Positions 1 to 24,804 are shown, counted from the first letter of the stretch. The stretch: 64,000 bases of DNA from an uncultured Bacilli bacterium (GCA_910584085.1 CAJTZY010000001.1:51830-115829), one strand, 5' to 3'. A program made the numbers and translations. The notes: generated by a model from the letters alone, not told the origin.

Positions 1-42
1 AGCATTGGCTTTAAAAAAAAACAAATCTATTTAATTTATGAT

Positions 43-600
43 TTGATTCATAAAGGTATTGAGGAGCAAATATATACTAAAATTCATTTTCCATATCATA
101 ATATAGAGCATATTGAGAGGGTATTATGTTATTGTATTTGGATATTAAATATGAAAATTAGTAAAAGTGAGATTTTAAAAAATGTTGATATTTTGTTGTA
201 TGCTGCCTTATATCATGACTGTGGGAGAAGTTTAATTGTTTCTAATAAAAAACATGGAATTGTTGGAGCAAAAATTGCTAAAGAAAAATTAAAAAGAAAT
301 TTTAATAATAAAGATTTAAATTCAATAGAACTGCTAATTGAAACTCATGCTAAGCCAAATGATATTGTTGATTTTAAAAACTATAAATTTACTGAAAGTG
401 AAAAAGAAAATATTCAAATTTTATCAAATGTATTAAAAGATGCCGATGCATTAGATAGAAATAGGATTAAGGTATTTAAATTTGCTCAATGTAATCCTAA
501 TTATTTAAGGACTAATGAGGCAAAAGAAATATACCATATTAGTAATATATTTTTAAAAAAGTATGAAGAAGCAAAAAGTAAAACTAGAGGTATTGAGTAG
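43..600 (+). CDS. HD-domain metal-dependent phosphohydrolase (possibly 5' partial)
   Basis: Contains an HD motif (LYHDCGR) and a downstream DADALDR. The layout parallels the HD protein at 30953-31645 (HNIEHIERV vs HGMEHINRV). TTG at 43 is the first start, but the frame has no stop back to nt 1, so the start may lie outside the window. Confidence 0.7.
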   Translation: MIHKGIEEQIYTKIHFPYHNIEHIERVLCYCIWILNMKISKSEILKNVDILLYAALYHDCGRSLIVSNKKHGIVGAKIAKEKLKRNFNNKDLNSIELLIETHAKPNDIVDFKNYKFTESEKENIQILSNVLKDADALDRNRIKVFKFAQCNPNYLRTNEAKEIYHISNIFLKKYEEAKSKTRGIE

Positions 601-780
601 ATTTTGATGTTGAATGAATTGAATAATATTGTATAAATGTATTTAAATGCGTTATAATGTATTTATCAAATACAAATGAACTTATTTTTTTTGCTGATGA
701 GTGCAAAACTCCATCAGTAAACGCACCATAGGGAAATTAGTCGAACTAATCGACTTTAAATATAAAAAAGATTAATTTCA

Positions 781-967
781 AATATGGACTGCACCATATT
801 TAGGAAAAACTTCTATTCTTCGAACAAAAATATTTTTCGAAAAATATGATTATATTGTTATCTTAGAAAAAAGAAATAATTATTATCAATTAGTTACTGT
901 CTATGTAGTTGATAGGAAAGATAGACGAGAAGATTTATTAAAAGAATATATAAAATATAGTTCATAA
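781..967 (+). pseudogene. 3'-terminal remnant of an unidentified ORF
   Basis: The frame reads WTAPYLGKTSILRTKIFFEKYDYIVILEKRNNYYQLVTVYVVDRKDRREDLLKEYIKYSS*. An in-frame stop lies just upstream and there is no start or RBS. Family not recognised. Confidence 0.25.
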
Positions 968-1349
968 GACGGAAAAAGGATTGATCTAAAATCAACCCTT
1001 TTTCTGATGCTCCTTCTGATACTAGTCAGATGAGTAATTAGAATATATCATAAAACTATGATTTTTCCAAATATCTGACATTACTATTTTACGTCATAAT
1101 TTACATTATATGAATATAAATTTTATTGATTCCAAAAGAGTAACATACTACGCTATTGGCAGAGCCAACAACAGTGTGCAAAAGGAAAGCTCCCCCCTTT
1201 GAAATCCTAAAACATAATTAAGCAAGAAATATTATTCAATCAAAATTATGCTTTTTGAATTGCACTAAATCGCAATTATTTATTTTCAAAACTTCGTAAT
1301 GAAAATAAATATATAAAATTCTATCACTACTTTCATTGGAACTTCGTTT

Positions 1350-1650
1350 CAACAAAACGTGCCACAACTTTTATCTTCTTTTTGGTGAAGATTCATAATT
1401 ACGAATTTGATTCCATAAATCTTCTGAATTTTCATATTCCCAATCAGTCATATCTACAACTTCACAATCTGATGCTCTTAAAGTCTAGATTTGTGTGAGG
1501 TAAATCTACAAAAGCTGCTTCTTACATTTTTTTATCTATTTGCATTATTAGTTCATCATCTTTATTTTTTGGAACTGTTGGTTTTCTTGTTATAAATATT
1601 CTTTTACTTTCTGCATCTATCGTAAAAACTTGATAATCTTCATTCTTCAT
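1350..1650 (-). pseudogene. Small ORF broken by a stop and frameshifts
   Basis: The minus strand gives MKNEDYQVFTIDAESKRIFITRKPTVPKNKDDELIMQIDKKM*. It then continues in other frames (EAAFVDLPHTNLDFKSIRL*, ASDCEVVDMTDWEYENSEDLWNQIRNYESSPKEDKSCGTFC*). This reads like one ~110-aa gene that has decayed. Confidence 0.3.
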
Positions 1651-1813
1651 ATACAAACAACCCCCATATTCTTTAAATAAATCTTTAAATAAATATCATA
1701 AAATGAAAAAAACATTTGAAAAACTAAAAAAAATGTAGTATAATGGGTCATACAGTTGAAGATAAATGTACAAATAATATTTAAGTGACAACAAAATAGA
1801 AAACGAGGCAAAA

Positions 1814-2428
1814 ATGAATATTAATCCAAATAGTAAAAAAAACTTTAATGATGAAATAATTCTTAAATTTAATCCTATAATTATAACGGAATACTTAAAA
1901 TGGTTAAGTTATATTTCAGAAAAAGAGGTACAGCAAATTAATGAATTATCAGAAAAACCAATGTATGACTTAAGTAGTGCAGAAATAGAAAATTTAAAAA
2001 GATTTAACGAATCACTAAAACTTATACCGCTTTTAAAACAGTATTTATTAAATAATATTAGCAATAAAGATATGATAACTGTTCATAATTATATAATGGA
2101 ATATAATATAGAAGATATAATGAAATCCAAATTAGATGATAAAGAAATAAGTGAGGCAATGTTAATCATTGATGGTGTATTAAGAAAGCCACATAGTAAA
2201 TTAGTAAAATATGCTTTAAGTAATAGAGAAGAGGAAGTATATAACACATTATCTATGGTAGAAGCTTACGCACTATATTTTATAGATAAGATATATATGA
2301 ATTTAAGTGTTCAAAAAATAGAAAATTTAATTTTAAATAAATACCCTAATGCAATGGAACTTGAAGATTATAGAGCTAAAGAAGAAAAAAGGGTAAATAG
2401 AACACTTGAAATACTTAAAAAATTATAA
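1814..2428 (+). CDS. Hypothetical protein (204 aa)
   Basis: Long ORF in stop-rich AT DNA with an RBS-like acgagg upstream of the ATG. No recognisable motif. Confidence 0.7.
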   Translation: MNINPNSKKNFNDEIILKFNPIIITEYLKWLSYISEKEVQQINELSEKPMYDLSSAEIENLKRFNESLKLIPLLKQYLLNNISNKDMITVHNYIMEYNIEDIMKSKLDDKEISEAMLIIDGVLRKPHSKLVKYALSNREEEVYNTLSMVEAYALYFIDKIYMNLSVQKIENLILNKYPNAMELEDYRAKEEKRVNRTLEILKKL

Positions 2429-2541
2429 TTTAATGGATTAATAATCCTTTTTTTTGTAAACTTAAATTAATTAGTTATAAAAAGTATATCTTAAATATAA
2501 AAATATGCTATAATAGTATATATAATATAGGAGTGAAAAAT

Positions 2542-4308
2542 ATGAGCACATATGATAAATTTGAGTATGAAAATTTTAATGAAGAAACAAAGAGATATTT
2601 AAATAAGGTAATGGATATTTATTCATCAATAATGAATAAAGACATTATTTTAAAAGATTATAATAATTATGAACTTGTAGATTTAGAAAAAAAATTACTT
2701 TCAATTTATTTAGCAAGTTTTTTAGTGGAATGCAATTTAAAACATACACTAGAGGAATTTAATGAGATAAAAATTGATGATTTATTAACTTTTTTTGGGT
2801 TAAATAGAGAAGATATAAAAGAATTGGAAAAGGATGTATATAGGGGCTTTTATAATATATATTTTGACTGGGAATCAGTAAAAAGAATGGATAGTGAGTT
2901 AAGAGAAATTCTTTTAATCGACAGGCTAAACCTTTTCTTTTCCAATTATGATATTAATATAATCACTCCTGAAATAATCTTTTTATGTACAACAACATTA
3001 AATCCACTAAATGATTTTAATAAAGAAAAAAAATTATGTATTTTTAATTTTTCCCAGCATGAAAGTTTTAAAAGGGTTGAAGAATTTGCTTTAAAAACTG
3101 GTAGTTTAAAGAAAATTAATACAGAACATGAAAAAATTAGATTAATTTCCCCAAACGATATTTATAAAAACAAAAAAAATCCTTTAAAAGATTTACAATC
3201 TTTAACAATAAAAATATACAAAGACAATTTTAAGATTGAAGATGATGGTGAAAAAGAAGAAGGAATTTTTAAGAATGTTCATGAAAAAACAGAAGGCTCA
3301 CCAAATGTTGATGATGAAAAAATTTGGTCCTTACTTGATGATATACAAAAAAAGTTTATTGGACAAGAAACTGCTGCAGAATATTTATTTTACAATATAG
3401 TTAATAATCAACAATTAGCTTCAAGAGAAGACGTTAGTGATGGAGAACGTTCTATAATTTTTCTTGATGGACCAACAGGTACTGGAAAAACAGCCATTAC
3501 AAGAGAAATTACTAATAGATTAGGTATACCATTTACATCCTCAACAATTACTAATTACTCAAGTACGGGATATGTTGGCGGTGATATTACAGATACATTA
3601 AAGGATTTACTAAATAAATCGGGTGGCGATTTAAAAAAAGCTGAAAGAGGTATTATTGTATTTGATGAATTTGATAAAATTGCCTACAGTAGGAATAATG
3701 GACTTGAAATGAAGAGGGCTGTTCAACAACAATTACTTGACTTTATGGGTGGAGGAAAGTATAGAGTTTCCATGGGACCTTATGACCCTAATATTGAATT
3801 TGACACTTCTAAATTAACTTTTGTATGTTTAGGTGCTTTATCAGATTTAAGAGAGAAAAAAACAGAAAGAAAACAATCAATAGGATTTACAGATACATTA
3901 GATGATAGAAATTCTGATACATATAGCATAAATCCACAAGATTTAATTAATATTGGTCTTGAAAGAGAACTTGTTGGTAGATTTAATACATATCTTCATA
4001 CTGAAGAATATTCTAAGGAAGATTTATTAAGAATTTTAAAAGAATCAACTATAAGTCCAATGATTGGTTTTGAAAAATGGATAAATTCGAAAGGGAAAAA
4101 ACTTATAGTTGAGGATGGTGTCTATGAAATTATAGCTGAAACTGCTTATGACTTAAATACAGGTGCAAGAGCATTACAAACTATAATAAATAATATTAGA
4201 ACACCCTTTATAAAAGAAGTATTAAGAGGAAAAGAAGATATATTCTTAAGTGTAGATACCATTATTAACATAAAGCAAAATACATTAAATAGAAAGGCTA
4301 GAAGATAA
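2542..4308 (+). CDS. ClpX-like AAA+ unfoldase with a non-canonical ~300-aa N-terminal region
   Basis: The C-terminal half carries Walker A GPTGTGKT, pore-1 loop GYVG, Walker B IIVFDEFDKI, an IGF-type loop (KQSIGFTD), ELVGRF, and sensor-2 TGARAL. All are collinear with ClpX. No N-terminal C4 zinc finger is present. AGGAG at 2529-2533 favours the ATG at 2542 over the GTG at 2533. Confidence 0.85.
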   Translation: MSTYDKFEYENFNEETKRYLNKVMDIYSSIMNKDIILKDYNNYELVDLEKKLLSIYLASFLVECNLKHTLEEFNEIKIDDLLTFFGLNREDIKELEKDVYRGFYNIYFDWESVKRMDSELREILLIDRLNLFFSNYDINIITPEIIFLCTTTLNPLNDFNKEKKLCIFNFSQHESFKRVEEFALKTGSLKKINTEHEKIRLISPNDIYKNKKNPLKDLQSLTIKIYKDNFKIEDDGEKEEGIFKNVHEKTEGSPNVDDEKIWSLLDDIQKKFIGQETAAEYLFYNIVNNQQLASREDVSDGERSIIFLDGPTGTGKTAITREITNRLGIPFTSSTITNYSSTGYVGGDITDTLKDLLNKSGGDLKKAERGIIVFDEFDKIAYSRNNGLEMKRAVQQQLLDFMGGGKYRVSMGPYDPNIEFDTSKLTFVCLGALSDLREKKTERKQSIGFTDTLDDRNSDTYSINPQDLINIGLERELVGRFNTYLHTEEYSKEDLLRILKESTISPMIGFEKWINSKGKKLIVEDGVYEIIAETAYDLNTGARALQTIINNIRTPFIKEVLRGKEDIFLSVDTIINIKQNTLNRKARR

Positions 4309-4309
4309 T

Positions 4310-4645
4310 ATGAAATATGAATATAATGGCAATTTATTAGAAGATGAGAGAATAAATTTAGTAGCAAATGAAATTATAAGTGCCTATCCTCAAATAAGTT
4401 TTGATAATGCTAAAGAAGCAGCTATGCTTGAAGGAAAAATATCTACAGATAAAAATTTTGAAATGGAATTTAATAGATTATATAACATTATAACTATTAT
4501 GAAAAATGATAAAAATATTGTAAGAATTATATATAAAGATTTAGTTAACTTATTAGTGAGTAACAAAGAACATGAAAAAATTAGTTATTATTATGAAATC
4601 GCACTTAATATTTCTAATTTTTTAATGGATAGAGGAGATTTTTAA
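4310..4645 (+). CDS. Hypothetical small protein (111 aa), translationally coupled to the ClpX-like gene
   Basis: The ATG lies 1 nt after the upstream TAA (agataatATG). No recognisable motif. Confidence 0.65.
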   Translation: MKYEYNGNLLEDERINLVANEIISAYPQISFDNAKEAAMLEGKISTDKNFEMEFNRLYNIITIMKNDKNIVRIIYKDLVNLLVSNKEHEKISYYYEIALNISNFLMDRGDF

Positions 4646-4736
4646 TATCTTCTTTTTTATATACAAATATAATAATTTTGTGATTTTATTAAAGTAAGGT
4701 ATAATATAATAAATAATTTTAGTGAATGGGGTATTT

Positions 4737-5819
4737 ATGGATAATAAAGTAAATGAAATTATGAATATAATGGAAAATATAACTTATGGATTTAAAAATA
4801 AAAATGGGGATAATATATTAGATATAGATCCAGACTGGAATTTTGATGAATATTATCTTCAAACACCAGACGAACTTTTAAGGAAAAAATGTGGAGTTTG
4901 CTTTGATCAAGTTGAACTTGAAAGAAAATTGTTTAAAAACAAAAATATAGACTTTAAAACATATTTTATATGTACATATGATGGTGATATGTTACCATCG
5001 CATACATTTTTAGTATATCAAGATAAAGATAAATATTGTTGGTTTGAACACTCTTGGGGAAGATATAGAGGCATTCATAAATATAATACTAATTTGGAAT
5101 TATTATTAGATGTAAAAGATAAATTCAGGAGTGAACACACTTATGTAAGTGGAGAGGCATATACATTTATACATGAATATAGTAAACCAAAAAGTCACAT
5201 TTCATGTACAGAATTTTATAGATATATGGAAACCCAAAAATTAATTAAGTTAAATTCACCATTATACTTTTATCATTTAGTTAATAAAGATGCAAATATA
5301 AATCCTGGATTAATTAGTTTACAGTATATGTATAATAAAAAAATGTACGATTTATTTGATAAGAGTGTATTAAAATACAAAGAAAGAATTATAAACGATT
5401 GGAATATAAATAAGTATAAAGGTAAAGAAAGTTTATCTAGAGAAGATTATATAGATGCTTTAAATATTTTTAGAGGTCATCATGGCTCAAACTACATATA
5501 TTTCTTTAGATATCCACTATATAAAAAATTGGGTAGTAAAATAAATGAACTTTCAAAATATAAAGATATATATCGAATAAATATAAATGATGAAGAACTA
5601 CAAAAAAGGATTTTAGACATATTCTATGGCTTTGATATGAGTAATAGTGATAATAAAATGTTAGATAAAAAATATTATGAAAATGTAACAAAGAATGAAT
5701 ATTTTTCAAACTATGATGATAACGAAGAGATGAATTTTAGTAAACTTAATCATATTGCTATAAGTTTTAGTGGGTGTTATTGCCCAAAAAAATTCTTAGA
5801 AAAAGTAGATTTTGAATAA
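4737..5819 (+). CDS. Transglutaminase-like (papain-fold) cysteine peptidase domain protein with an unknown C-terminal half
   Basis: The N-terminal region has the order Cys (KCGVCFDQ), His (SHTFLVY), then FEHSW, which resembles the transglutaminase-core Cys-His-Asp/Glu arrangement. The ATG at 4737 follows GGGG; the GTG at 4722 is an alternative start. Confidence 0.5.
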   Translation: MDNKVNEIMNIMENITYGFKNKNGDNILDIDPDWNFDEYYLQTPDELLRKKCGVCFDQVELERKLFKNKNIDFKTYFICTYDGDMLPSHTFLVYQDKDKYCWFEHSWGRYRGIHKYNTNLELLLDVKDKFRSEHTYVSGEAYTFIHEYSKPKSHISCTEFYRYMETQKLIKLNSPLYFYHLVNKDANINPGLISLQYMYNKKMYDLFDKSVLKYKERIINDWNINKYKGKESLSREDYIDALNIFRGHHGSNYIYFFRYPLYKKLGSKINELSKYKDIYRININDEELQKRILDIFYGFDMSNSDNKMLDKKYYENVTKNEYFSNYDDNEEMNFSKLNHIAISFSGCYCPKKFLEKVDFE

Positions 5820-5885
5820 AAAATACTCTTTTTCTTTTAATTTACGTGAAATTAATGTATAATGAAAACAGGGGAGTGAGTTGTT

Positions 5886-6977
5886 GTGGAAAATAAATTG
5901 AAGTTAGTTGTACCAGATAATTTTATTGAATTTGGAGTAAAGGTAAATAATCATATCAATCTTATAAGAAATACTCATGAAAATTATATAGTAGATATGA
6001 ATTTAGTACGTTTTAATAATGGTGAAGGAAAATGTTCGTTTAAAGAATCAGTAAGAGATCAAGACGTATACATTATGACTGATATAGGTAATTATGATGT
6101 TACATATGAAGCACAAAGGGGAATACATCATATGATGCCAGATGAACATTATCAAGATTTAAAAAGAATTATAAGTGCGATGGGTGGACATGCTAGTAAG
6201 ATTACAGTAATTATGCCTCTTTTATATCAATCAAGGCAAGATAAAAGAAGCTCAAGAGAATCACTTGATTGTGCAATGGCACTTCAGGAACTTGAAAGAT
6301 TTAATATTAGTGAACTCGTTACATTTGATGCACATAATCCTATAGTTGCTAATGCTATACCTAATAAAATGTCATTTAGTAATGGATATGCAACAAGTGA
6401 TATGATACTTAGTTTGTTAGAAAATGAAAATATAGATATCGATAAACTATTTATTGTAAGTCCAGATGAGGGAGCACGTACAAGGGCTAAGTTTTTAGCA
6501 GATATACTAGGTGGAGTAAAATATGGTAACTTTGATAAAAGAAGAGACTATACAAAAATAGAAGATGGTAAAAATCCCATGGTTTACCATGAATTTATTG
6601 GTCCAGAAAATCTTAACGGTTTAGATATAATCTTAGTAGATGATATGATCGCATCAGGTACTTCATTAATCGATTCTGCAGTTCAAATTAAAAATAGAGG
6701 CGCAAATCACATTTACCTTATGACTACGTTTGCACTATTCACTAAGGGTATAGAAATATTTGATGATGCATATAGGAAGGGAATATTTGATAAGCTATAT
6801 TCAACTAATTTAACATATGTTCCAAATGAATATAAGGAAATGCCTTGGTATTTTAATGTAGACTGTTCACATAAAGTTGCTAAAATTATAAGTGACTTAA
6901 ATGAGGGAAAGTCTATAAGATCACTTTTAAATGGAAAAGAAGAAACTGCACAAAAAATAAAAACTTTAAAAATATAA
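5886..6977 (+). CDS. prs: Ribose-phosphate pyrophosphokinase (PRPP synthetase) family, long form
   Basis: Carries LLYQSRQDKR (Prs RQDR region), DAHN, VSPDEGA, DKRRD, and the PRPP-binding loop IILVDDMIASGTS. GTG start after GGGGAG. Paralogous to 23704-24804. Confidence 0.8.
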   Translation: MENKLKLVVPDNFIEFGVKVNNHINLIRNTHENYIVDMNLVRFNNGEGKCSFKESVRDQDVYIMTDIGNYDVTYEAQRGIHHMMPDEHYQDLKRIISAMGGHASKITVIMPLLYQSRQDKRSSRESLDCAMALQELERFNISELVTFDAHNPIVANAIPNKMSFSNGYATSDMILSLLENENIDIDKLFIVSPDEGARTRAKFLADILGGVKYGNFDKRRDYTKIEDGKNPMVYHEFIGPENLNGLDIILVDDMIASGTSLIDSAVQIKNRGANHIYLMTTFALFTKGIEIFDDAYRKGIFDKLYSTNLTYVPNEYKEMPWYFNVDCSHKVAKIISDLNEGKSIRSLLNGKEETAQKIKTLKI

Positions 6978-7009
6978 AGAACAATAATATATTTTTTGCA
7001 TAAAATGTA

Positions 7010-7038
7010 TTGAAAAATAAAATTAAATTTGTTATACT
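7010..7038 (+). promoter_or_regulatory. Sigma-A-type promoter for tRNA-Cys
   Basis: TTGAAA (7010-7015), 17-nt spacer, TATACT (7033-7038), about 19 nt upstream of the tRNA 5' end. Confidence 0.5.
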
Positions 7039-7056
7039 ATAAAAGTATTAACAAAT

Positions 7057-7130
7057 GGGTCTATAGCCAAGTGGTAAGGCGTGGGACTGCAACTCCCTGA
7101 TCGTTGGTTCAAATCCGACTAGGCCCTCCA
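7057..7130 (+). tRNA. tRNA-Cys (GCA)
   Basis: Hand-folded cloverleaf. Acceptor stem is GGGTCTA/TAGGCCC and the anticodon loop is CTGCAAC. The T arm is GTTGG-TTCAAAT-CCGAC. The CCA end is encoded. Confidence 0.9.
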
Positions 7131-7143
7131 TATTAAAAATATC

Positions 7144-7166
7144 CGAACTCTTGCAGTTCGTTTTTT
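7144..7166 (+). terminator. Intrinsic terminator after tRNA-Cys
   Basis: Hairpin cgaact-cttgc-agttcg followed by TTTTTT. Confidence 0.7.
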
Positions 7167-7412
7167 CTTTATAAGATAATAAGATTAAATTTTCTAAAAA
7201 TTACACCGACCGAAAAGTGACCAAAAATATTGATAATATTTTAATTCAAATTGGTAATAGTAAAAATACTTATTATGTGGTAAAATAGTTACAGAAATTG
7301 ATAAGGTTTATTAGCTTCTTGGTTTAGCGAAAAAAGTTTGAAATAGCTTAACTACTTACTCCAATAGACGAAAATTTTAAGTATTTATGAATTTATATAA
7401 GGAAAATATGAT

Positions 7413-7682
7413 ATGGACATGATAGATTATTTTGATATTGAGTATACAAAAGAAAAATTGAATAAGTGCTTAGAAAATGGAACAGAACCAGAATTATGTA
7501 TAAAAATTGAGGGAAACGATTATATGATTATACCGTTGAGAGACAAAATATCTTTTCAATGGATTGGTAAAACATCTGAATTTTTTTATAAAGATGTAGA
7601 TGAACTATTTTCTAATGAATTAATAAACGGAATTGTTTTAAATAGAGATTGGAATAAAGTTGAAGATATTTATTATTACTAA
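7413..7682 (+). CDS. Hypothetical small protein (89 aa)
   Basis: ORF preceded by aaggaaaa. No recognisable motif. Confidence 0.55.
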   Translation: MDMIDYFDIEYTKEKLNKCLENGTEPELCIKIEGNDYMIIPLRDKISFQWIGKTSEFFYKDVDELFSNELINGIVLNRDWNKVEDIYYY

Positions 7683-7791
7683 ATGAAAATGATATAAATT
7701 TTGAAAATTATTTGGTAATAACTCAATTAGACAGAAGAAACAAGATAGTTTGTCTTTAAAATTTAATGAGTAGTATGAAGGTGGAATAATA

Positions 7792-8163
7792 ATGAAGATA
7801 GATAATTTTTATTTTGTAGTAGATAATATAGAAAAATCCATAAAGTTTTATAGTCAACTTTTAAACGAAGAACCCTCAAATATCACAGAAAATAGATGGG
7901 CAGATTGGAATAATACTAATAATCAAATTTATTTTGGAATTATTAGTGTGGAAGCCGCAGAAAGTAAAAAAAGTATTGGAAATAATGGTGTACTAGGTTT
8001 ATACACAAATGATATAGAAAAATCACTTGAAAAATGCAAAAAATTAGGTGCGAAAATTTTATATGAGCCTGAGGCAATTCCTAATAGTGAAGATAATTAT
8101 AGATGTTTTGCAATTGAGGACTTAGATGGTAATAAAATTGAAATTGCACACTATGATAAATAA
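7792..8163 (+). CDS. VOC (glyoxalase/bleomycin-resistance) family protein
   Basis: N-terminus FYFVVDNIEKSIKFYSQLL and C-terminus FAIEDLDGNKIEIA are typical of paired beta-alpha-beta-beta-beta VOC modules. GGTGGA RBS. Confidence 0.7.
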   Translation: MKIDNFYFVVDNIEKSIKFYSQLLNEEPSNITENRWADWNNTNNQIYFGIISVEAAESKKSIGNNGVLGLYTNDIEKSLEKCKKLGAKILYEPEAIPNSEDNYRCFAIEDLDGNKIEIAHYDK

Positions 8164-23703: not shown

Positions 23704-24804
23704 CTATTTCTTAATTAATTTTTTTACTTCATTTTTTTCATAATCATCAACTTGTCTTAATGATTGTTCATTGGAAATGGCATTAATCACGTTTGCAAAG
23801 TATTTTGATAAATCAACTTCGTGATACCAATTTTCTTTCTTTATATCCTCTAGAACGTAGGTAACATTCGTTGTATATAAAGTATTAAAAATACCAAGTT
23901 TGTTAGCCTCTTTAAATCTTTTTATACTTTCTTCTCCATCTGTAAATAATGGGAATGTTACCATAATATCAATTTTTTTTGCACCTTTCTTTTTTAATTT
24001 TGATGCAACATCTAAGACAGATTCTCCACTAGCAATCATATCATCAACAATAATTATATGTTTACCAGCTACATCCTCTCCTAAGTACTTGTGTTCAACT
24101 AAAGGATTCTTTCCATTTATCACTTTGGAATAATCTCTTCTTTTATGAAACATTCCAACATTGACTCCTAAGATACTTGCAAATGGAATTGCTCGAGAAA
24201 TAGCTCCCTGGTCTGGTGCGATAACAATAGTTTTATCTCTTTGAAATTCTTCACTCAACAAAAATTCTTTTAAGAGAATGTAAGTAGGTAATAGATTATT
24301 AAAAGTTGTTTTTCTTAAGACATTATTGCACACAACAGGATTATGCGCATCTAAAGTAATGATTCCATCTACATTTTTAGTTTCTAAGTCAATCAATCCT
24401 TCCTTGCAATCAAGAGACTCATCCACACCATTTGGCTTCTTATCTTGTCGTGATTCATATAGTAGTGGAGTTACAACATGAATGGACTTTGCTCTGCCAT
24501 CTATTGCAGAAATAATTCTTTTAATATCTTGAAAGTGATCATCTGGACTTTTCATATAGATTCTTCCTCGAGAATAATAGCAAGACTCTTCTCCGTAGTT
24601 TCCTACATCTGATAAAATAAAGATTCTCTTTTCCATAACATCACCATGCAATGTTGCTTTTCCCTCAGCATTTGAAAATCGGTCTAAGTGTATATCAATA
24701 CTTTTATCATACGGATTACCTCGAATGACTTTTAAATGTTCATTTACAAGTTTTCCAAACTTTTGTATATTTGGCATAATAATAAGTTTTGGCTCTTTAC
24801 TCAT
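23704..24804 (-). CDS. Ribose-phosphate pyrophosphokinase-like protein (second, cassette-borne paralog)
   Basis: Carries LLYESRQDKK, DAHN, APDQGA, HKRRD, and IIIVDDMIASGES. GGGAGGAG precedes the ATG at 24804 (MSKEPK...). Lies 15 nt upstream of the Nudix-Apt gene on the same strand. Confidence 0.8.
   Translation of the reverse strand: MSKEPKLIIMPNIQKFGKLVNEHLKVIRGNPYDKSIDIHLDRFSNAEGKATLHGDVMEKRIFILSDVGNYGEESCYYSRGRIYMKSPDDHFQDIKRIISAIDGRAKSIHVVTPLLYESRQDKKPNGVDESLDCKEGLIDLETKNVDGIITLDAHNPVVCNNVLRKTTFNNLLPTYILLKEFLLSEEFQRDKTIVIAPDQGAISRAIPFASILGVNVGMFHKRRDYSKVINGKNPLVEHKYLGEDVAGKHIIIVDDMIASGESVLDVASKLKKKGAKKIDIMVTFPLFTDGEESIKRFKEANKLGIFNTLYTTNVTYVLEDIKKENWYHEVDLSKYFANVINAISNEQSLRQVDDYEKNEVKKLIKK

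Follow-up and report, generated by a model that had tools for sequence, protein, structure and literature searches.

ClpX is among the most uniform of the AAA+ unfoldases, with the choice of substrate normally being set by its zinc domain, its RKH loops and a few adaptors. A stretch of 64,000 nucleotides (nt) from an uncultured Bacilli bacterium (GCA_910584085.1 CAJTZY010000001.1:51830-115829), referred to here as the window and used for all positions, raises the question of what a ClpX-family motor does once these recognition devices have been exchanged for others. The gene concerned (2533/2542-4308, + strand) encodes an ATPase of 588 amino acids (aa) with an unfamiliar N-terminal domain, and it is followed by a gene for a small protein of 111 aa. 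The explanation preferred, held tentatively and at somewhat less than even confidence, is that positions 2506-4645 form a self-contained, horizontally exchanged two-gene cassette, encoding an accessory ClpX-family unfoldase that docks on ClpP and a cognate small partner.

The C-terminal part of the ATPase (residues 262-588; 3325-4308, + strand) comprises the large and small domains of a ClpX-type AAA+ module, an assignment based on NCBIfam, alignment with PDB chains and motifs. Pfam recognizes AAA, AAA_2 and ClpB_D2-small in the protein. The best NCBIfam matches are the ClpX equivalogs PRK05342 (165.4 bits, cut-off 359) and TIGR00382 (146.7 bits, cut-off 370.75), both covering residues ~262-577 only and both falling under their curated cut-offs. 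ClpX chains came out on top of a phmmer search of the PDB (E = 3e-36, residues 265-551), ahead of mitochondrial CLPX and HslU, and the ClpX alignments begin at residue ~263-272 of the ATPase.

The motifs of the motor, all on the + strand, have counterparts in E. coli ClpX. The Walker A sequence GPTGTGKT (residues 310-317; 3469-3492) corresponds to GPTGSGKT, the pore-1 loop GYVG (residues 343-346; 3568-3579) is the same in both proteins, and the DEFD of Walker B (residues 375-378; Walker B 3658-3675) is read as DEFDK opposite DEIDK. Furthermore, the IGF loop SIGF (residues 446-449; 3877-3888) stands opposite GIGF, the arginine-finger region ELVGRF (residues 476-481; 3967-3984) opposite EFIGRL, and the sensor-2 motif TGARAL (residues 540-545; 4159-4176) opposite TGARGL. 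The sequence-only reading of this locus had assigned these motifs, GYVG and SIGF included, to the product of 2542-4308, and it was right according to both their positions and a HMMER alignment with structures of E. coli ClpX. Walker A, GYVG, Walker B, [ILM]GF and GAR[SAG]L hardly vary in a set of 120 relatives, 116 of which have the GYVG pore-1 loop. G448 and F449 of the SIGF loop are invariant among relatives, and [ILM]GF is kept even in distant family representatives (clustering at 50%). As far as its sequence can tell, the motor holds every element for binding and hydrolysing ATP and for gripping and translocating a polypeptide.

The recognition devices of ClpX are not retained. At the position of the RKH loop (3772-3801, + strand) the ATPase carries MGPYDPNIEF opposite the E. 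coli sequence GGRKHPQQEF, so that RKH is absent, a point not raised by the sequence-only reading, and relatives show a variable G-x-x-x-F/D stretch at this position. The pore-2 region is shorter than that of canonical ClpX. The C4 zinc-binding domain is also absent, since neither its Cys motif nor any conserved Cys was found in the alignment of the N-terminal domain. In ClpX, substrates are recognised through the zinc-binding domain and the RKH loops, and the IGF loops dock the unfoldase onto hydrophobic sites of ClpP (PMC9035409). The motif alignment, taken together with these roles, indicates that the engine and the ClpP-docking motif were retained and that both ClpX-specific recognition devices were lost. 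The invariance of the IGF(G) loop makes docking on ClpP plausible.

The place of the zinc domain is taken by a domain that is all-helical in the AlphaFold2 (AF2) model (the N-domain; residues 1-195; 2542-3126, + strand), followed by a variable, low-confidence linker (residues 196-261; 3127-3324, + strand). The predicted local distance difference test (pLDDT) reaches ~85-98 over residues 10-110 and 130-195 of the N-domain and stays at ~33-66 in the linker. That the zinc domain had been replaced was already proposed from the sequence, and this part stands; the length then given, ~300 aa, has to be reduced to ~261 aa, made up of the 195-aa helical domain and the linker. The N-domain evolves faster than the motor, the mean identity to relatives being 35% for the N-domain, 17% for the linker and 72% for the motor. 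The linker also differs in length across the family.

The replaced region had been described as unrecognised, and the AF2 fold does not change this. Searches of the N-domain against Pfam, PHROGs and PDB sequences and profiles were all without a match, and Foldseek against the PDB gave no significant match, the best suggestive one being the Hsp104 N-domain (E = 2.9, TMq 0.31, TMt 0.47). Comparison with the N-domain of B. subtilis ClpC yielded an hhalign probability of 0.1, and Pfam Clp_N did not match. A test for an internal repeat in the N-domain detected none, and hhalign showed no relation between the N-domain and the small partner.

A profile search with the N-domain retrieved 104 of 1.84 billion representative proteins. 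Most of these show the same architecture, the N-domain followed by a ClpX-like motor, or are fragments. In ~20 matches (497-564 aa), the N-domain precedes a D1 module of the ClpA/B/C type instead of a ClpX motor; this was confirmed for P0293, in which PDB matches begin at chain residue ~150-180, just past Clp_N. The N-domain is private to the ClpX-like family and this set of ClpC/ClpB-D1-type ATPases, and the two kinds of fusion identify it as a portable head carried by two motor types at the position of the Clp N-domain. The position occupied in the D1-type fusions, that of Clp_N, fits the role of a recognition module. The proposal of a ClpX-family unfoldase with a private recognition head gains from the family-wide presence of the N-domain in place of the zinc domain, with ClpP docking made plausible by the invariant IGF(G).

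Some further observations concern the N-domain proteins as such. Those with a single D1 are P0284, P0293, P0297, P0299, P0304, P0310, P0316, P0324, P0326 and P0334-P0341 (loci L076-L078). Two short contigs that are informative place D1-type genes in a housekeeping context (rplS-lepB upstream and tsaE downstream), with the small partner absent; in these Bacilli, the D1-fused proteins may make up a core Clp-like family that has gone unannotated. P0250 (768 aa) has two tandem N-domains ahead of its ClpX-like motor. P0261 (696 aa) has no ATPase; behind its N-domain, short repeats (LPENIGG...L.GLT.AEGL) form a long array.

The second gene of the pair (4310-4645, + strand) encodes a conserved small partner, established by homologues, AF2 modelling and synteny, that comprises 111 aa here and ~117 aa in relatives. 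None of its 347 homologues contains a Pfam domain, and Pfam, NCBIfam, PADLOC and PHROGs gave no match for the partner. The N-terminus is the most conserved portion, with the sequence M-x-[YF]-EYNGNLLE-[ED]-[DE]-R-I, and relatives carry a C-terminal tail, FP[YF]L-x-[ED]-[FY]. AF2 predicts a five-helix bundle (mean pLDDT 88.9) with a low-confidence N-terminal peptide.

The coordinates confirm that, as previously described, the small open reading frame (ORF) begins 1 nt past the ATPase stop, a TAA. Of 48 genome loci, 42 carry the partner immediately behind the ATPase, and in those with resolved gene ends the two genes are separated by 1-9 nt or overlap by 1 nt. This start/stop arrangement is consistent with translational coupling. 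When 809 neighbour ORFs were clustered, no other family was found to be co-conserved with the pair.

The distribution of the pair is narrow and its surroundings vary. One genome per species was scanned for 185,579 species, which yielded 51 loci, 49 of them in the ClpX-like family; all 49 come from metagenome-assembled genomes (MAGs) of uncultured gut Bacilli, 'Tenericutes' or Erysipelotrichaceae. Over exactly 2.1 kb, from ~90 nt before the ATPase start codon to the partner stop codon, the three loci L007, L001 and L013 are 92-94% identical in nucleotide sequence, and their flanks are unrelated. The ~90 nt upstream belong to the conserved unit in relatives and include TGGTATAAT and GGAGG. In the window, ATG 2542, with a GGAG ahead of it at 2530-2533, is the most likely start of the ATPase and gives the 588-aa product; a protein of identical sequence is present in a public protein collection. 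Reading of the sequence also points to a putative -10 element, TGcTATAAT (2506-2514), which together with this ribosome-binding site occupies 2506-2541 on the + strand. A consensus scan for promoters and terminators was uninformative in such AT-rich DNA (54 promoter-like sites versus 48 expected).

In L005, L007, L008 and L014, the pair resides within an island that also encodes a serine recombinase and a Mob_Pre relaxase; L007, L008 and L014, three different species-representative genomes, have this island at 97-99% identity. Other contexts of the pair comprise metal-resistance genes with ISL3 and a recombinase, a tRNA array, and core genes. Tandem duplicates of the cassette are found in L034 and L040. 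Moreover, a clean 1.5-kb deletion of the ATPase is seen in L071:6877-7357 and L073:221-701 when compared with the full version in L072:885-2910. These deletion variants, from two samples, have flanks 99.8% identical to the full version and an intact partner. The deletion joins ATPase codon 44 to the partner start region, leaving a 44-aa stub ending in ...NYEF that overlaps the partner start, and its junction lies at a short sequence common to ATPase codons ~41-44 and the partner start region. The full version itself (L072:560-4058) reads tRNA-Val, tRNA-Thr, the cassette plus a 164-aa gene, tRNA-Tyr, tRNA-Gln and tRNA-Lys, which suggests that this cassette was inserted into a tRNA cluster.

The family is absent from the phage (INPHARED), plasmid (PLSDB) and IMG/VR collections: tblastn against INPHARED and PLSDB returned canonical ClpX only, at ~30% identity, and the IMG/VR scan was empty, so a phage or plasmid origin finds no support in these searches. 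As for transposon-like ends, the search for terminal repeats gave nothing meaningful, only a terminator hairpin.

In the preferred explanation, the ATPase hexamer would dock on the ClpP of its host through the IGF loops, and the N-domain would select a dedicated set of substrates that the hexamer degrades or remodels. The partner would be a private adaptor or gatekeeper, by analogy with ClpS-ClpA, SspB-ClpX and MecA-ClpC, and it would probably be tethered by one or both of its ends, the invariant flexible peptide at the N-terminus and the conserved tail at the C-terminus. If coupled to ClpP, the cassette would represent a natural case of a host protease retargeted by a portable specificity module, with a bearing on the evolution of regulated proteolysis, on the possible manipulation of host proteostasis by accessory cassettes or mobile elements, and on the engineering of degradation systems. 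With the N-domain and the partner, two hitherto unannotated protein families are defined as well, the N-domain being common to two Clp motor classes.

Several observations weigh against this explanation. Neither canonical clpX nor clpP was found within the 64-kb window, and clpP was equally missing beside the ~60 loci checked; near the examined loci, it was seen only in an unrelated locus from Calditrichota, next to a canonical clpX. As evidence of docking on ClpP, the conservation of IGF is indirect. Foldseek searches of the PDB and BFVD with the partner fold gave no match, to known adaptors or otherwise. The copy of the partner in the window is without the conserved C-terminal tail, as a TAA replaces the Pro codon of the tail while the Tyr-Leu codons continue in frame (window 4640-4660). 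The closest relative, P0125 (89% identical), stops at the same place, and, from the codons, the loss looks like a lineage-specific nonsense truncation. Finally, the partner is absent from six loci, from which it follows that the motor can exist without it. In four of them (L039, L042, L047 and L049), an unrelated 148-aa gene with no detectable homology to the partner stands where the partner usually is.

Different functions could be served by a cassette of this kind, and anti-phage defence or abortive infection is the first to be considered, although it is unlikely. Here, the N-domain would act as the sensor of a phage protein, an essential protein of host or phage would be destroyed by the motor, be it with ClpP or alone, and the small protein would act as inhibitor or trigger. 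In favour of this are a discrete cassette exchanged between unrelated contexts, a patchy and narrow spread (49 family loci among 185,579 species genomes), the tandem duplicates of L034 and L040, and an N-domain that evolves much faster than the motor. Some neighbours also are defence-like or come from mobile elements: Fic/SoFic, AbiD, PDC-S01/S05, LeoA, Apyc1-like and Bro-N proteins, serine recombinases and Mob_Pre. However, the 150 non-redundant neighbours are mostly housekeeping or miscellaneous, and no defence gene recurs among them. Nucleases, NADases and membrane effectors are all absent, and PADLOC (PADLOC-DB v2) gave only weak, partial P-loop matches to IetA (E = 2e-7, ~95 residues), TRIP13 and mad8, with no match for the partner or for two neighbours discussed below, the 204-aa ORF and the transglutaminase-like protein. 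Literature searches on ClpX-like defence systems and ClpX paralogs turned up nothing relevant. The toxin/defence module suggested by the sequence-only reading has no direct support, the PADLOC matches being weak and generic to AAA proteins and no consistent defence neighbourhood being seen.

The mobility of the pair suggests a second possibility, with a small chance of being correct, namely that it is cargo of mobile elements that reprograms host proteolysis, either by degrading a repressor, restriction or defence protein or by remodelling recombinase or relaxase complexes. In several MAGs, the pair lies in mobilisable islands with a serine recombinase, Mob_Pre, helix-turn-helix regulators or ISL3, and the near-identity of the island in L007, L008 and L014 (97-99%) argues for this reading. 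There is also precedent: the MuA transpososome is a remodelling target of ClpX, and restriction alleviation in E. coli proceeds through ClpXP. Nevertheless, many loci have no mobile hallmark within 8 kb and are found amid core genes, for instance S1, Spo0A, PGK/TIM, SecA or tRNA arrays, and the absence of the family from the phage, plasmid and IMG/VR collections also argues against it. A related proposal, given the same small chance, is a mobile device of immunity or counter-immunity, of a new kind and based on a ClpX motor. In it, the fast-evolving N-domain would sense an invader or a host-defence protein, the invariant N-terminal peptide of the partner would gate the pore, and the triggered motor would hijack the ClpP of the host by way of the IGF loops and destroy a specific target; shuffling would have brought the one sensor domain to motors of both the ClpX type and the ClpC-D1 type.

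A toxin-antitoxin-like addiction module, with a toxic ATPase and the small protein as its antitoxin or the reverse, is improbable. The two-gene cassette, its coupling-type start/stop arrangement and its movement between contexts are what such a module would show, and the ATPase-deletion variants L071 and L073 keep the small gene, as expected if the ATPase were toxic. These same variants, however, exclude the small protein as a toxin that needs the ATPase, while the six partnerless loci argue against an ATPase toxin that needs the partner as antitoxin. The sizes and folds are unlike those of known toxin-antitoxin pairs, and no toxin-antitoxin or PADLOC family was matched. From the earlier suggestion of a coupled small protein, the genuine, conserved partner can be kept; its antitoxin-like role has found no direct evidence.

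The least likely alternative is that this is the housekeeping ClpX of the lineage, diverged in reduced genomes, a view in keeping with the lack of canonical clpX in the 64-kb window, an N-domain common to all relatives and hosts that are poorly known, reduced-genome gut Bacilli, but opposed by a locus that is not conserved, near-identical pairs in unrelated flanks, tandem duplicates and clean deletions within populations, carriage by only ~50 species representatives, scores far under the ClpX equivalog cut-offs and the absence of the RKH loop for ssrA-tag recognition. The earlier view that the gene is not a housekeeping clpX at a core locus thus agrees with the variable flanks, the near-identical pairs elsewhere, the duplicates and the deletions. 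That reading had also considered whether relatives might share the N-domain at a conserved core locus; the N-domain is indeed shared, but the locus is not conserved.

Comparison with known systems helps to place the preferred two-gene cassette. Relative to canonical ClpX, which forms ClpXP and works with adaptors such as SspB, the ATPase of the window is ~30-35% identical in the AAA+ large and small domains. Both are single-ring motors preceded by an accessory domain, and the Walker A and B motifs, GYVG, IGF(G), arginine finger and sensor-2 align. Unlike canonical ClpX, the ATPase has neither the C4 zinc domain nor the RKH loop, its NCBIfam scores are under half of the equivalog cut-offs, and it bears the ~195-aa helical N-domain with its linker and a dedicated partner gene directly downstream. 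Whereas canonical clpX belongs to the tig-clpP-clpX-lon locus, the genes of the window type occupy an accessory, mobile one.

The pairing itself, with a small dedicated protein (~100-120 aa) encoded beside the unfoldase and co-inherited with it, recalls ClpS-ClpA and MecA-ClpC. Like ClpS, the partner has a flexible and highly conserved N-terminal extension; that of ClpS engages the ClpA pore. However, the partner is predicted as an all-helical bundle, in contrast to the alpha/beta fold of ClpS, shows no detectable similarity to ClpS or MecA, and is encoded downstream rather than upstream of its unfoldase. The motor is of the ClpX type, unlike the two-ring class I motors ClpA and ClpC. The N-domain resembles the Clp_N of ClpA, ClpB, ClpC and Hsp104 in being all-helical, of ~150-195 aa, and in preceding D1 in fusions, and differs from it in having no significant sequence or profile similarity and no internal repeat.

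ClpK/ClpG already provide a case of an accessory Clp ATPase that has a distinctive extension at its N-terminus and has spread horizontally, by way of genomic islands, beside the housekeeping set. Like these proteins of the transmissible locus of stress tolerance in Enterobacteria and Pseudomonas, the ATPase of the window is mobile and accessory. ClpK/ClpG are ClpB-like disaggregases with two rings and no IGF loop, whereas this motor is of the single-ring ClpX type with IGF; they are encoded in Proteobacteria as part of a large heat-resistance locus of many genes, whereas this motor has a single partner. HslU (E ~1e-16) and mitochondrial CLPX (~1e-19) match the ATPase as members of the same AAA+ clade, and it is clear from HslU, CLPX and Mcx1 that a ClpX/HslU motor can have its accessory domains replaced or new ones inserted. 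HslU has an inserted I-domain and docks on HslV through its C-terminus, in contrast to the IGF loop kept here, and none of the three has an N-domain of the window type.

Around the pair, all five ORFs of the region and the phosphoribosyl pyrophosphate (PRPP) synthase gene are read on the + strand. An HD-domain protein is encoded at 43-600, the 204-aa ORF that had been noted ahead of the ATPase is present at 1814-2428, the transglutaminase-like protein follows the partner at 4722/4737-5819, and PRPP synthase is encoded at 5886-6977. The block precedes a tRNA-Cys (7057-7130), as had been described, and this tRNA was the sole match of an Rfam scan of window positions 1-8000. The G+C content is ~21-30% across the region, and no compositional break is seen.

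The 204-aa ORF and the transglutaminase-like protein had been taken, with the pair, as a block of four. When the neighbours in the window were compared with 57 loci by tblastn, together with the clustering, the ATPase and the small protein alone proved to be conserved, and this four-gene module was rejected: these two neighbours, like PRPP synthase and the HD protein, have no match in the other loci. The 204-aa ORF has no homologue beyond its own sequence cluster and matches no family in Pfam, NCBIfam, PADLOC or PHROGs. An Aphodocola locus has PRPP synthase, an HD protein and tRNA-Cys/Gly nearby, as in the window, which suggests a loosely kept synteny within this lineage.

The transglutaminase-like protein had been given as 361 aa; its length is 360 aa when counted from ATG 4737. 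Pfam places it just below DUF553 (PF04473; 20.3 bits versus a cut-off of 20.5), a domain carried by about a third of the homologues listed. Cys55, His89 and Glu104, the Cys/His/Glu core, are invariant in 20 homologues, which makes the label 'transglutaminase-like' reasonable. The family, of ~360 aa with 54-78% identity, occurs in the same gut Bacilli MAGs. Its C-terminal half (residues ~175-360) is equally conserved and has no Pfam match, and no member is functionally named. In the partnerless loci L039, L042, L047 and L049, the gene just upstream encodes a membrane-anchored, Ser-rich protein of ~590 aa with a transglutaminase-like core, GSCDNYSAMF...GGGHTTVNIKINGKWYNFDP, and ATP-binding cassette (ABC) transporter genes lie downstream. 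The resemblance between the transglutaminase-like cores of this subclade and of the window is probably coincidental.

Upstream of the 204-aa ORF, the stretch at ~600-1800 had been described as decayed, and window 601-1813 indeed contains no ORF longer than 54 aa, only frame-broken fragments on both strands. On the + strand, a C-terminal fragment at ~780-967 ends in ...YYQLVTVYVVDRKDRREDLLKEYIKYSS*, and on the - strand ~1370-1656 holds fragments such as MKNEDYQVFTIDAESKRIFITRKPTVPKNKDDELIMQIDKKM* and ...DMTDWEYENSEDLWNQIRNYESSPKRR*. These fragments look like remnants of decayed genes. Elsewhere in the window, a second PRPP synthase paralogue (23716-24789, - strand) is 42% identical to the copy at 5886-6977. 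Finally, an 89-aa ORF past the tRNA-Cys (7413-7682) has a weak match to a functionally unannotated phage family, phrog_3711 (E = 7e-4).

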